Shown here: positions 555 through 19,089 of the stretch, one piece after another
Layout of the letters: each line of letters starts with the position of its first letter
Position numbering within the stretch: position 1 is the first letter of the stretch
NCBI GenBank assembly: GCA_051652765.1
Contig: JBOFUV010000122.1
Span: 1 to 19,089 of the forward strand
DNA length: 19,089 bases
Source of the DNA: Microcoleaceae cyanobacterium
Lineage (GTDB): Bacteria; Cyanobacteriota; Cyanobacteriia; Cyanobacteriales; Microcoleaceae
Direction: 5' to 3'
The notes under the pieces: model-generated
The model's database searches: none
Told to the model about the DNA's origin: nothing
What the model saw: only the letters and a program-made list of their open reading frames with translations
Translations under genes and position numbers: made by a program

Positions 555-2294
555 TTAAGAGAAACTGTAAATGGTTTGGGCTTCGAGGCGATCGCCCAGG
601 GAAGACGGGAAGTCTGGCAATGAAAAATGCTGGCGATCAAGTTGCACTTTTAGGCTGGTCAGGGGATCACAACCATTTGCTACCAAAAATTCTAATTGTT
701 GCAAATTGGGCCAAGTTGCAACTTGCGCTAGGATTTTGCCGATGGCCTGTCGATTTGGATGTTCCGGATTTTGATACCAACTGATGGGTTCCAAGCAGGG
801 CTGATCTGAACCTAGGTGAACAATCAGAGAACTCTGACCAAACAGAGCGATCGCCACAGGTCGCTGTTCTTCTTGCAGTAGTAAATGGTAGGTTGAGGCT
901 AAATGGGTCAATTTCTCCAACCAGGCTGAGCGATCGGACAATTGGGCGACCGAGTGCAAAATTGAGGGAGTAGACCAGGTTTGCTGGGCGGTCTGTTGCC
1001 TCTCCTGAACATCCTGAGTTTCATCCCATTGCAAGGCGATTGTGATCAGATAAGTTTGTAGCAACAAATGACCCAGTTTTTTAGCTTTAGTCGCTAGATA
1101 AACCGCGTTATGGTCAGTTGCTTCAATTAACAAAGGTACCCGATCTACGACTTCAATCCCATAACCCTTTAACCCAGCAATTTTGCGGGGATTATTGGTA
1201 ATCAACCGAATTTTCTTCACCCCAATATCATTCAGGATTTGGGCCCCCATGCCATAATTTCTCAAGTCTGCCGGAAATCCTAATCGTTCATTGGCTTCAA
1301 CGGTATCAAGTCCCATATCTTGCAGCGAATAGGCTTTCAACTTGTTAGTTAAACCAATGCCTCGCCCTTCCTGGCGCAGGTAAACAACGACTCCAGACTT
1401 GGCATGATCAATCATTTTGAGGGCAGTTTGAAGCTGCATTCGACAATCACATCGCAATGAGCCAAAAGCATCTCCAGTCAAACATTCGGAGTGAACTCGT
1501 ACCATTACAGGCTGATGCTGAAAGTCTTGGGGATCGCCTTTGACCATCGCCACATGTTCCGATTGATCGAGGAGATTACGATAGGCATAAATCAAAAACT
1601 CCCCAAATTGGGTCGGAAGTTTAGCGATGGCTTCTCGCTGAATAAACCGATCATGGGCTAAACGATAACCAATCAAGTCGGCAATGCTGATCAGCTTCAG
1701 CTCATGCAGCTTGGCGTAGTCGATCAATTCGGGCAATCGCGCCATGGAGCCATCTGGGTTCTGAATCTCGCAAATCACGCCCCCTGGATAGAGCCCCGCT
1801 AATCTGGCCAGATCCACGGCGGCTTCTGTGTGGCCTGCTCGCTTGAGGACTCCGCCATCCCGAGCCCGCAGCGGAAAAATATGTCCTGGTCGTCGTAAAT
1901 CTTGAGGTCGTGTTCCAGGGTTAATGGCTACTTGAATCGTTAGGGCTCGATCTTCTGCTGAGATTCCGGTGGTGACTCCGATTTCTGGAGTTGCATCAAT
2001 GCTCACGGTAAAGGCAGTTTGATTGAGATCCGTATTATTGGTAACCATCAGGGGCAAATCCAACTGGTCAAGGCGATCGCCTGTGAGTGCCAGACAAATC
2101 AAGCCACGGGCATGAACTGCCATAAAGTTGATCACGTCTGGCGTAGAAAATTGAGCTGCCCCAATTAAATCGCCCTCATTTTCTCGATGTTCGTCGTCAA
2201 CGACCACGATGCAGCGTCCGGCCTTGAGTTCAGCAAGGGCAGATTCAATCGAATCAAACTGAAATCCGTCAGGTAAGGCGTTGGTCTGGGTCAC
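555..2294 (-). CDS. ribBA: Bifunctional 3,4-dihydroxy-2-butanone-4-phosphate synthase / GTP cyclohydrolase II with cyanobacterial C-terminal extension
   Basis: [21 protein letters not shown] and RAGHTEA (RibB); [26 protein letters not shown] and LITNNPRK (RibA); GTG start. Confidence 0.97.
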
Positions 2295-2359
2295 AGAGTC
2301 TCACAGAAACAAACTAGAGCTTTTCTTGATTGTACCTTCAATTCTTTTGTTGCTTATCA

Positions 2360-4594
2360 TTAGCCCAGATGAAGTGATGTTGTTTCAGGAGACTGAAGCT
2401 CAATTTCAGGAGATACATCTTTAAGAGCTTGATAAACGGCAAGGTCAAACCAGAATGTGGTTCCAGCTCCCAACTCACTGACTAAATGAATCTGACTATG
2501 ATGCTTTTCAATAATGTTTCGGACAATGGATAATCCTAATCCCGTGCCTTCGAGGGTATGGACGCGATTTTCCACTCGAAAAAATCGCGTAAACACAGAG
2601 TCTTGATCTTCAGGAGCAATTCCTGTTCCTGTATCTGAAATTTCAATCCGAACAAATTGAGGAAAAGAGGGCTGAGCTAGAAAGCCCCGCTCACTAGAGT
2701 GAGCGATTGTCCAACCGGCATGAGAATCAGCTTCATTGAAGTTGACTTCATTTTTACTTAAGTTAACTTCGTTTAACATGAAATTCTGACTGATGGGATC
2801 AGGACGCTCATCTTCTAACAGATAGGCGCGGATCATTACCTTCCCTCCCAATTCAGTAAACTTAAGAGCATTCCCAACCAGGTTGGCAAAGACTTGTAAC
2901 AATAAATCGTAGTGACCTAAGACAGAAGGCAAATCGGGTTCAACCACATGATTTAATTCAATGCCTTTGTCTTTAGCATTCAGTTGATAGGTTCGTAAGG
3001 TTTGCTCAATTGGAAGAAAAATATCGATTGCCTCAAAATGATAAATCCGACAGGATTCCAGTCGAGATAAATCCAATACATCATTGACTAAACGAGTCAG
3101 GCGGTCTGTTTCACTGTTAGCTGTTTCTAAAAACTCTCGGCGCTGTTCCTCAGTCAGATCTTCACCGTAGTCATTCAATGTTTCAATAAAAGACTTGATG
3201 TTAAATAGGGGAGTTCGCAACTCATGAGAGACATTACTGATGAACTGACTTTTTGCTTCATTCAATTCAGCTTCACGGGTAATATCTTGAACGGTCATGG
3301 CAATTCCCTTCAGAACATCCCGGTACCTATCTTCCACTTTTCGAGATTTATTCTGCTGATAAACAGCGCATTCCTTGACATTTGGACGGTCAGGCAGCTT
3401 GCAGGTATCATCACCGTCATAGGTACAACTCTTGCACAGCGGTTCCAAACCGGGAGATTTGTTCAGCGAAACAGTATTGATTAAAATTCGCAGGGTGCGG
3501 TTATTCGGTTCCGTGAGAGAACAGCGAAATTCACCGCCCTCTAAATGACCGGTCGCAATTTTTTGGAGCGATTGGTAGATGTCTTGCAAAATCGGCATCG
3601 GCAGATATTCAAACACACTTTTTCCAATCAGATCTTTCCCCTCCCAGTTGAACAAACGCCGTGCAGTTAGATTGACCAGAATTACCCGCAACTGAGCGTC
3701 TAAAAGCACTGCTCCATCGGCAATGGTTGACACCAAAGTCTCTAACTTGGCTTTCTCTGCGGTCAATTCTTCGATATTCTGCTCTTCATAGCGCTCCAAC
3801 CGCTCTGCCATATCATTGAAGCTGATAATCAGTTCGCCCAGTTCACCCCCAAAAGGCAAATCAATTCGCTGCTTAAAGTTGCCATCCGCAATATTCTTTA
3901 CCCCCGTAGACAACTCTTTAATCGGTTGTGTAATGGTCAGGGCATTGAATACTGCTCCTAAAATCACCATGACCCAAATCGAGACAAAAACAGCCAAGGT
4001 CACGTCACGGGTGAGATTGGAAGAAATGACAACCGTGGGGTTGGGATTAATCCCGATTGCTAAAATTCCTAAATACTGATCACTATGCATCAAGGGAACA
4101 AAAACATCCGTAATCTGCCCCGCAGGAGTCAAGTGCTGCCGAACCATTGGAATCGACGCAAAATTCCCGGATTCAACACTAGCCAAAAAATTCTCTGGCA
4201 GTTGCATCCGCCGTCTCAACGTGAGGGAGCTTTGGACAGCCGAGTCTGAAAAGGGTAATCCTAGGTAAATATCACCCTCGGGATCAGCATAGAGCATATA
4301 ACGCACGCTGGACGTACTGGTATAAAACTGGCGAGAAAACCGGGCCACCTCATCTTTTCGATCTTCAGCCACCAATGGTGCAACATTTGCGGCCAACAAT
4401 AGCCCTAAATCCCGACCGTAGCGAGTGTCGTTCATCCGAGCATCTTCTTGGATGGTATTAACAGCCCAAAATGTCAACCCACTCATCAGCAAAGAAACCA
4501 CTAAGGTCGCCCCTGCCATCAAACGCGTCTGCAAGGTGAACTCAGACCACCAACTTGCAACAATTTGACTAATTCTTTTAAAAAATGCCAGCAT
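2360..4594 (-). CDS. nblS: Sensor histidine kinase NblS/Hik33/DspA (TM-periplasmic-TM-HAMP-PAS-HisKA-HATPase) with two insertions
   Basis: WWSEFTLQTRL N-terminus, RYGRDLGLLLA, HAMP (TQPIKEL...GELGEL), FISNVSHELRTPLFNIKS, FFRVENRVHTLEGTGLGL; lies downstream of purD as in many cyanobacteria. Confidence 0.95.
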   Translation of the reverse strand: MLAFFKRISQIVASWWSEFTLQTRLMAGATLVVSLLMSGLTFWAVNTIQEDARMNDTRYGRDLGLLLAANVAPLVAEDRKDEVARFSRQFYTSTSSVRYMLYADPEGDIYLGLPFSDSAVQSSLTLRRRMQLPENFLASVESGNFASIPMVRQHLTPAGQITDVFVPLMHSDQYLGILAIGINPNPTVVISSNLTRDVTLAVFVSIWVMVILGAVFNALTITQPIKELSTGVKNIADGNFKQRIDLPFGGELGELIISFNDMAERLERYEEQNIEELTAEKAKLETLVSTIADGAVLLDAQLRVILVNLTARRLFNWEGKDLIGKSVFEYLPMPILQDIYQSLQKIATGHLEGGEFRCSLTEPNNRTLRILINTVSLNKSPGLEPLCKSCTYDGDDTCKLPDRPNVKECAVYQQNKSRKVEDRYRDVLKGIAMTVQDITREAELNEAKSQFISNVSHELRTPLFNIKSFIETLNDYGEDLTEEQRREFLETANSETDRLTRLVNDVLDLSRLESCRIYHFEAIDIFLPIEQTLRTYQLNAKDKGIELNHVVEPDLPSVLGHYDLLLQVFANLVGNALKFTELGGKVMIRAYLLEDERPDPISQNFMLNEVNLSKNEVNFNEADSHAGWTIAHSSERGFLAQPSFPQFVRIEISDTGTGIAPEDQDSVFTRFFRVENRVHTLEGTGLGLSIVRNIIEKHHSQIHLVSELGAGTTFWFDLAVYQALKDVSPEIELQSPETTSLHLG

Positions 4595-4943
4595 TTTAAA
4601 ACGTTCTGAGCCCGCAATTTGACTTGATCACTCAACTTGACAGCTATCTACAACAATCTGACTTGAAGTTCGAACGTGGAGTAAGAATTATTCCCGCCCA
4701 AGCTTCAAGCCTGTGCTCTGGATACCTGATTAATCATGACTGATTGCTACATATCTATTCCATTCAATAAACTAGTAACCCCTTCTGCTCTCAAACTGAG
4801 TTCAAACTTCTAGCCTATGCTGCTCATCTTCGCAGCAGCCCTGAATGAATTATTTGAACCGTTACACAGCAGTTACTCCGATTAAGTTAAGTTTTGTTAA
4901 TATACTCATATTATATATTAGCGAGTTTCCCCAAGTTTTACCA

Positions 4944-6224
4944 CTAATTCGTAATCATTCGAGCCACTCGAAACCCAATATCTCGGCGACAGTAGACTCC
5001 TTCAAACTGAATGCAGTCCACAGCCCGATAGGCAGCGGCGATCGCCTGTTGAAAGGTAGGTCGAGCGACAGTGACCCCCAAGACCCGCCCGCCATCAGTC
5101 ACCACTAAGCCATCATGCAGAGTGGTTCCAGCATGAAACACAATTGCTCCTTGAGCCTCAGCCTGTTCTAACCCAGTAATCACTTTGCCTTTTTGATAAA
5201 CCCCTGGATACCCCCCAGAAGCCAACACAACACAGACTGCTACCTCCGGTTTCCAGGCTAGGGGGGGCAGTTGAGCCAGACGCTGCTCACAACAGGCCAA
5301 TAGCAGGTCATCTAATGGAGTTTCTAGTAAGGCAAGCACGGTTTGCGTTTCCGGGTCACCAAAGCGGCAGTTAAATTCCAGGACGTTGAGTTCTCCAGAT
5401 GGAGTGATCATTAAGCCCGCATAGATCACTCCTCGATAGTCAATTCCCCAAGCTTGCAAGGTTCGGAGTGTGGGTTCTAGGACTTGGGACTGAATTCGTG
5501 CCATCAACTCTGGGGTCACAATTGGGGTCGGGGCATAGGCTCCCATCCCCCCGGTATTGGGGCCTGTGTCTCCTTCTCCAACTTGTTTATGATCCTGGGC
5601 TGGAACTAAGGGCCGAATGGTCAAGCCATCGGTTAGAGCTAGGACAGACACCTCTTGACCGGTGAGATACTCCTCAACCACAACCCGCAGGTTATCAACA
5701 CCAAACTCTCCCGCAAAAATTGTGTCAATTGCGGTATGAGCTTCTGCCACACTCGTGGCGACGGTGACTCCTTTTCCTGCCGCCAGCCCATCTGCTTTAA
5801 TAACAATGGGCGCAGTGGTCACATAGGCTTTGGCGGCATTGGCATCGATAAAGGTTTTAGATTGGGCCGTTGGAATCCCGGCTTGCTGCATCAGATCCTT
5901 GGCCCAAGATTTACTGGCTTCCAGTTGGGCTCCTAATTGAGTTGGCCCAAATACAGTAAGACCCTTAGCCTGTAATTGATCCGTTATTCCCAAGGCAAGG
6001 GGCAGTTCAGGCCCTACAATCACTAAATCTACGTGATGCCCTTGGGCAATTTGGCCAATTTGCTCCAAGTCTTCAACGGCTGCAGACAGATTGGAACATC
6101 CAGAGAGGGTTGCTGTTCCCCCATTACCAGGAGTACAAATGACTTGTTTCACATTGGGAGACTGGAGGAGTTTCCAGACAAGGGCATGTTCGCGCCCTCC
6201 ATTACCGACCACTAAAACCTTCAC
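4944..6224 (-). CDS. purD: Phosphoribosylamine--glycine ligase
   Basis: KVLVVGNGGREHAL, KADGLAAGKGV, QDHK...GPNTGGMGAY, EFNCRFGDPETQ, TDGGRVL; GTG start. Confidence 0.98.
   Translation of the reverse strand: MKVLVVGNGGREHALVWKLLQSPNVKQVICTPGNGGTATLSGCSNLSAAVEDLEQIGQIAQGHHVDLVIVGPELPLALGITDQLQAKGLTVFGPTQLGAQLEASKSWAKDLMQQAGIPTAQSKTFIDANAAKAYVTTAPIVIKADGLAAGKGVTVATSVAEAHTAIDTIFAGEFGVDNLRVVVEEYLTGQEVSVLALTDGLTIRPLVPAQDHKQVGEGDTGPNTGGMGAYAPTPIVTPELMARIQSQVLEPTLRTLQAWGIDYRGVIYAGLMITPSGELNVLEFNCRFGDPETQTVLALLETPLDDLLLACCEQRLAQLPPLAWKPEVAVCVVLASGGYPGVYQKGKVITGLEQAEAQGAIVFHAGTTLHDGLVVTDGGRVLGVTVARPTFQQAIAAAYRAVDCIQFEGVYCRRDIGFRVARMITN

Positions 6225-17319: not shown

Positions 17320-19089
<1,770 letters not shown>

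Follow-up and report, generated by a model that had tools for sequence, protein, structure and literature searches.

The histidine kinase NblS is described as invariant in its domain content, yet in the family of Trichodesmium, Limnospira (Spirulina), Planktothrix and Microcoleus it has a conserved four-cysteine domain that sits one strand from the catalytic helix, making these proteins natural chimeras of NblS. Where does this domain come from, and what might it do there? In the excerpted text of a 2026 review, input sensing by NblS is called perhaps the most significant open question, and the PAS domain is proposed to participate (PMC13421787). Tsurumaki and Tanaka surveyed 308 species, and all NblS orthologues are reported in their preprint to be without additional domains as judged by SMART (bioRxiv 2025.01.21.633742). 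The Hik33 orthologue of Arthrospira is listed without remark in the corresponding excerpt of the genome paper (PMC2853384). Our search of the open literature found no published description of the insert, so that this family-wide, selected variant of a central kinase is apparently undescribed so far.

The window, meaning the whole 19,089-nucleotide stretch of DNA that was analysed, contains one such nblS gene (Table 1). Its 744-amino acid product scores 1090.4 bits against the NblS equivalog profile NF045911 (cut-off 1000), and it is the only one of 74 genome-wide matches to this profile that lies above the cut-off, indicating a single NblS in the genome. Domains follow the order HAMP-PAS-HisKA-HATPase, with the phospho-histidine, His457, in a SHELRTP motif. 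The protein therefore resembles NblS/Hik33/DspA/Ycf26 in having the full TM-HAMP-PAS-HisKA-HATPase arrangement, a score above cut-off and a single copy, and differs from it by a 45-amino acid, four-cysteine insert in the PAS domain. In a tree whose rows were NblS proteins only, without non-NblS kinases, it is nested in family f1. A scan of 2200-5000 for promoters and terminators returned signals at chance level only. Judging from their translations, the neighbouring gene at 555-2294 (-) looks like ribBA with a long C-terminal extension, the gene upstream of nblS at 4944-6224 (-) is presumably purD, and we take 17320-19081 (-), at the window end, to be psbD/psbC. A second, cysteine-free variable insertion splits the HATPase domain (NblS amino acids ~592-646, window 2657-2821, minus strand), and PF02518 and the NCBIfam kinase models each match the HATPase region in two stretches. 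Many insert-less NblS proteins (among them those at loci L118, L120, L121, L124, L135 and L167) have acidic or histidine-rich variable insertions at an earlier point in PAS, immediately ahead of the EFR strand, the one at L167 being histidine-rich.

Table 1. Coordinates of the nblS gene, its domains and insert (window positions), and of the free-standing gene (own locus)
Feature	Position	Strand	Basis
nblS/hik33 (dspA) sensor histidine kinase, 744 aa	2360..4594	-	ORF translation; NF045911 profile match
HAMP domain, aa 218-267	3794..3943	-	Pfam PF00672
PAS domain before insert, aa 283-376 (PF00989 positions 2-95 of 113)	3467..3748	-	Pfam
Net 45-aa insert, best-fit aa 377-421, turn between last two PAS strands	3332..3466	-	Flank alignment
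Conserved 36-aa core, aa 377-412, homologous to middle of free zinc-ribbon membrane protein	3359..3466	-	Sequence comparison
Cys387	3434..3436	-	Kept in 99% of 87 unique inserts
Cys390	3425..3427	-	Kept in 100% of 87 unique inserts
Cys398	3401..3403	-	Kept in 99% of 87 unique inserts
Cys409	3368..3370	-	Kept in 98% of 87 unique inserts
PAS continuation (last strand and DIT motif), aa 422-439, running into kinase helix	3278..3331	-	Alignment
HisKA/DHp domain, aa 447-514; His457 at 3224-3226	3053..3256	-	Pfam PF00512; SHELRTP motif
Free zinc-ribbon membrane-protein gene, own copy	G000:C97, locus L002 1366-1728		Sequence match to insert

A sequence-only reading of this DNA had proposed a 45-amino acid segment with four cysteines inside the NblS PAS domain. 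Translation of 3335-3469 (-) does give those 45 amino acids in frame within the 744-amino acid open reading frame, and the NF045911 model is broken at the same place, with model positions 2-361 aligning to 3467-4561 and positions 359-621 to 2432-3340. The site and the length thus stand, as does the numbering of Cys387, Cys390, Cys398, Cys409 and His457 when counted on the translation, but the boundary given as amino acids 376-420 is shifted by one codon, the best fit on insert-less flanks being amino acids 377-421. Between these strands, all 39 insert-less NblS proteins listed have a loop of 8 amino acids, and the 24 insert-bearing ones have a loop of 52-55, mostly 53, from which the net insert is 45 amino acids. 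Downstream, the last PAS strand of NblS ends in the DIT motif, as aligned to VicK. Named from PAS topology, the turn that carries the insert would be H-beta/I-beta.

The insert is a trait of the whole family and is present well beyond the genome of the window. Alignment of orthologues, the check that the earlier reading had proposed, places it in 126 of the family's 127 genomes, spanning 14 genera, and in two smaller lineages; the sole exception in the family (G020) has no match even to the flank. Family homologues with the insert bear the names Microcoleus, Planktothrix, Limnospira, Trichodesmium and Okeania, and the listed best matches are named Lyngbya, Capilliphycus, Limnospira, Planktothrix, Limnoraphis and Oxynema, along with Okeania, Microcoleus, Tychonema, Trichodesmium and Hormoscilla. 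Among the top 120 matches to the insert region, a set biased towards insert-bearing sequences because it was ranked by a query containing the insert, 117 have the spacing Cx2Cx7Cx10C, one has Cx2Cx7Cx8C and two are without the pattern. A phylum-wide draw of 301 genomes gave 136 with a match, 19 of them across the insert and 117 not, the latter classed by scores at the level of the flank or of a free module, with the 8-amino acid loop read directly in sampled loci. Standard NblS is therefore without the segment, as had been suspected. The 19 carriers comprise all 17 drawn from the family, one genome of family f5 (G028) and one of family f36 (G232), which belongs to another order.

Across 87 unique inserts, each of the cysteines is conserved at 98-100%, in agreement with the expectation that they would be conserved among insert-bearing homologues. 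One cysteine is missing in G350 and in P0048, and two are missing in P0112. In the same inserts L2, H3, L11, P29, E33 and Y37 of the module are 91-100% conserved, with E33 at 97% compared with 72% in modules of free-standing proteins (see below). Pooled Nei-Gojobori dN/dS reaches 1.03 in the 8-codon linker that follows the core, compared with 0.26 in the core itself and 0.06 in the flanks, based on 9 of 11 pairs (two with longer linkers were dropped) that share ancestry and of which one is saturated. Purifying selection therefore acts on the cysteines of the insert. A different outcome is seen in family f36, in which the module is intact in four genomes, while all four genomes of genus g150 have in its place an acidic linker of comparable length that contains no cysteine. 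Since the module has decayed there to such a linker, it is dispensable in g150, and the g150 loci (L164, L165, L172 and L173) are natural loss-of-function comparators.

Where the insert came from is indicated by a second gene in the same genome. A six-frame search of the 5.04-Mb genome finds Cx2Cx7Cx10C seven times and the stricter pattern [LI]Cx2Cx7Cx10Cx2[YF] twice, once in the insert and once in a free-standing gene that matches the insert with an E-value of 3.7e-8 and 43% identity. This gene encodes a 120-amino acid protein in which a CxxC..CxxC ribbon and a GHPG motif precede the module, and a linker and two C-terminal helices follow it; the second helix is hydrophobic, and the pair is probably a membrane anchor. 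The middle 36 amino acids of this protein correspond to the insert core, whereas the N-terminal ribbon and the C-terminal helix pair are extra to the free form. It has 588 homologues, of which the 120 listed are named 'zinc ribbon domain-containing' or hypothetical, and we found no described function for this ~120-amino acid zinc-ribbon protein. A kinship with small cyanobacterial proteins, suggested in the sequence-only reading, is thereby borne out, and free-standing homologues exist both in cyanobacteria and in other bacterial phyla. Insert and free module align over 39 columns without a gap, and of two profiles, one built from the free modules of cyanobacteria and the other from stand-alone modules outside cyanobacteria, 79 of 82 inserts fit the cyanobacterial one better (mean 50.6 bits, compared with 40.0). 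Together with the match in the genome of the window, these results establish homology to the free gene. In addition, an LH[RK]A lead-in is common to inserts and cyanobacterial modules only. An AF2 model of the free protein has a mean pLDDT of 59.8, with values below 50 at residues 29-87 and about 40 over the module, too low for the fold of the module to be trusted.

The free gene is found across the class and the insert in three lineages only, which argues that copying would have run from the free gene into nblS. Most insert carriers have kept the free gene, as most genomes have two module matches, although none was found in G232. In 16 of 80 named loci the free gene is convergent (tail-to-tail) with nblS; such loci include Microseira, Coleofasciculus, Crinalium, Aliterella and Stigonema among those without the insert, and Trichodesmium, Okeania, Dapis and Hormoscilla among those with it. 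Convergence was seen in at least 20 of 47 insert-less genomes from 13 families, mostly at less than 160 bp, and in at least 7 of 28 insert-bearing loci, both counts being lower bounds (the pattern missed some cases) from loci drawn non-randomly. A linkage of the free gene to rpoD was considered and rejected, as it was seen in none of 98 other loci. In the genome of the window a gene presumed from its label to encode an FKBP is located two genes away from the free gene (L002 186-1728), and a gene with this label lies near the free gene in 29 loci. One record, P0274 (199 amino acids), joins the N-terminal half of the free protein to an FKBP-type domain; because FKBP is commonly near the free gene, the record may reflect a deletion or a misassembly. 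Genome G015 has a third module match at locus L159 (G015:C2), N-terminally shorter (profile positions 7-39), in a 118-amino acid open frame.

In order to count origins, trees were built with the insert excluded. Both a 60-row quick tree and a 47-row careful tree (the 60-row set minus 22 rows plus 9) give three insert-bearing groups, namely f1 with Oxynema, Hormoscilla with G028, and f36. A single insert-bearing clade appears in none of 200 bootstrap trees of the careful set. In approximately unbiased (AU) tests, one clade is rejected neither with 60 rows (p 0.673, likelihood higher) nor with 47 rows (p 0.132, lnL 21.9 lower; p 0.253 without f36). The 36-column module tree requires two changes (AU p 0.245). 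Given that the left junction is shared and that all three groups have a loop of 53-54 amino acids, a single insertion event is tentatively favoured, which would have been followed by spread through transfer or thinning through loss.

Our preferred account, which we hold tentatively and at somewhat less than an even chance, is that the insert is a zinc-stabilised modulating appendage copied from a neighbouring gene into the PAS domain of NblS. The ancestral arrangement would have had the ~120-amino acid zinc-ribbon membrane-protein gene tail-to-tail with nblS, and a piece of this convergent gene may have been duplicated, inverted and inserted into nblS, entering, with the reading frame intact, the exposed turn that joins the last two strands of PAS. 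There the mini-domain would fold independently, with the four cysteines coordinating a single Zn(II), an autonomy suggested by the module being the sole conserved part of 47-100-amino acid proteins in other phyla. Attached to the strand that leads into the phospho-histidine helix, it could act as a structural appendage, and not as the primary stress sensor, in tuning the kinase/phosphatase balance of NblS or the docking of a partner. Most simply, four conserved cysteines in a cytoplasmic unit of 36 amino acids would bind one metal centre. For the metal itself we weakly prefer zinc over iron-sulfur, since the donor has a CxxC..CxxC zinc-ribbon-like unit and the module has sub-threshold zinc-finger matches. 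Several observations weigh against the account as a whole: the low pLDDT over the module, the equal fit of four cysteines to an iron-sulfur site, the relaxation in the inserts of residues that free modules conserve, the cysteine losses in g150, G350, P0048 and P0112, and a phasin-like gene that adjoins the free gene more often than a convergent kinase does. We know of no homology between SipA/Ssl3451 and the module. Excerpts of two papers describe SipA as a small, conserved modulator of NblS/Hik33 kinase activity (PMC7760821, PMC3264485), a likeness to the role suggested here, with the difference that SipA acts in trans. The relationship to the donor also draws attention to a gene next to nblS that is unstudied so far.

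Four cysteines suit a [4Fe-4S] or a [2Fe-2S] site as well as they suit zinc, and the insert could instead hold an iron-sulfur cluster, or act as a redox-active zinc-thiolate or disulphide switch, giving NblS a direct cytoplasmic input for redox, oxygen or iron. We consider this unlikely, although it is the strongest of the alternatives. The kinase is redox-responsive, its near-invariant cysteines are in the cytoplasmic PAS domain with a single strand between them and the phospho-histidine helix, and the CxxC..C..Cx2Y pattern bears what we take to be a loose resemblance to HiPIP. In the review excerpt, the sensing mechanism of the kinase is called unresolved, and RpaB phosphorylation is affected by thiol reduction through a route left unexplained (PMC13421787); the preprint, in the part available, describes NblS of S. 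elongatus as being without redox-active cysteines (bioRxiv 2025.01.21.633742). A partial parallel is Hik2/CSK, likewise a photosynthesis-control kinase with cysteines in a cytoplasmic sensor fold according to the same review excerpt (PMC13421787), but there a [3Fe-4S] cluster within a GAF domain has been demonstrated by experiment, whereas the NblS case is a mini-domain grafted into PAS and known from sequence. The database scans argue against a redox center. The insert matched no family in Pfam, NCBIfam or PHROG, and PDB sequence searches with the module profiles gave nothing significant (best E-values 1.3-7.5, to unrelated molecules), so the mini-domain is absent from these four libraries. 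Among the 25 listed of the 29 Pfam families touched by 141 module members, there is no HiPIP or ferredoxin family; the few sub-threshold matches are mostly to DUF2284 (11 members; best E-value 0.0013) and to zinc-finger families such as treble clef (4). No iron-sulfur assembly or electron-transfer gene recurs near stand-alone modules in the 105 of 140 flanking ORFs scanned. Furthermore, model strains respond to redox without the module. A strong sensory reading is also opposed by the loss of all four cysteines in g150, by the fact that most cyanobacteria signal without the insert, and by the relaxation of residues that are invariant in the free protein: Y17, H18, D20 and A31 are 98-100% conserved in 113 free modules but are at about 50% or changed in the inserts. 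From this relaxation it follows that the functional surface of the donor has been lost, and the insert appears to maintain the fold without keeping that surface.

The same relaxation would be expected of a tolerated passenger, fixed early in a permissive loop and kept in a folded state only because a thiol-rich loop that misfolds would damage the PAS domain, with no role in signalling. This reading is less probable again than a redox input. The cysteine-free acidic linkers of g150, similar in length to the module, are in keeping with it, as are the other insertions of variable length that NblS has in the N-terminal portion of PAS and within the ATPase domain. Against it, the insert is kept across 14 genera, with no precise loss seen among the 127 genomes of the family, and positions other than the cysteines are constrained too, E33 more tightly in inserts than in free modules. 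If the insert is indeed purely structural, it is still a lineage marker and points to a permissive site for NblS engineering.

We regard as improbable, and as weaker than the two preceding alternatives, that the module is an undescribed membrane-associated iron-sulfur or thiol redox mini-domain of several phyla that in most cyanobacteria, encoded by the convergent neighbour gene, regulates NblS in trans and that was fused into the PAS domain of NblS in Microcoleaceae and two further lineages as a direct, cofactor-based redox input. If true, the fusion would suggest that this stress kinase, the most conserved one in cyanobacteria, has a partner that has so far been missed.

The module also occurs outside cyanobacteria. 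A search of 1.84 billion representatives with its profile returned 71 matches, which comprise cyanobacterial proteins, small stand-alone forms and two larger fusions, and a second profile search yielded 108 proteins, of which the few with names are from Sumerlaeota, Planctomycetota and Chlamydiales. Stand-alone forms are the 47-100-amino acid proteins mentioned above, in which a hydrophobic or amphipathic-looking N-terminus precedes the module, and all four cysteines are invariant in a 141-row alignment whose members were chosen by that motif. In the Atlas the insert region has no usable match, and a stand-alone module led to unnamed clusters, most commonly from Planctomycetota and Chloroflexota (the phylum being known for few members). 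At 80 metagenome loci with stand-alone modules (L182-L261), a gene cluster of SH3 type lies upstream in 45 and tgt is convergent in 27. In cyanobacteria the commonest neighbour of the free gene is one labelled, presumably correctly, as phasin-like, which adjoins it in 65 of 102 loci compared with 33 of 102 for a convergent kinase. Adjacency to nblS may therefore be plain synteny; it shows opportunity, and partnership is not implied.

Finally, an artefact of assembly, or a mobile or spliced element that is non-coding, can be dismissed with near certainty as an explanation of the insert, since orthologues carry it at the same site and in the same frame in more than 120 genomes with conservation at the protein level, which excludes the misassembly that the earlier reading had asked about, and since RNA-library contigs from four of four studies run continuously across it without a joint in the gene of a relative (G016, locus L006), which argues against removal at the RNA level even though such contigs may include DNA carry-over and so leave transcription itself unproven.

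Three other occurrences of the module were noted. In P0300 (543 amino acids) it follows a kinase-like domain with weak RIO1/APH matches, and in P0309 (274 amino acids), a protein of no assigned kind, it precedes a transmembrane segment. At L252 (363-1641), a single case, the gene for a stand-alone module is divergent from a PspA/IM30 gene that has a small downstream partner.
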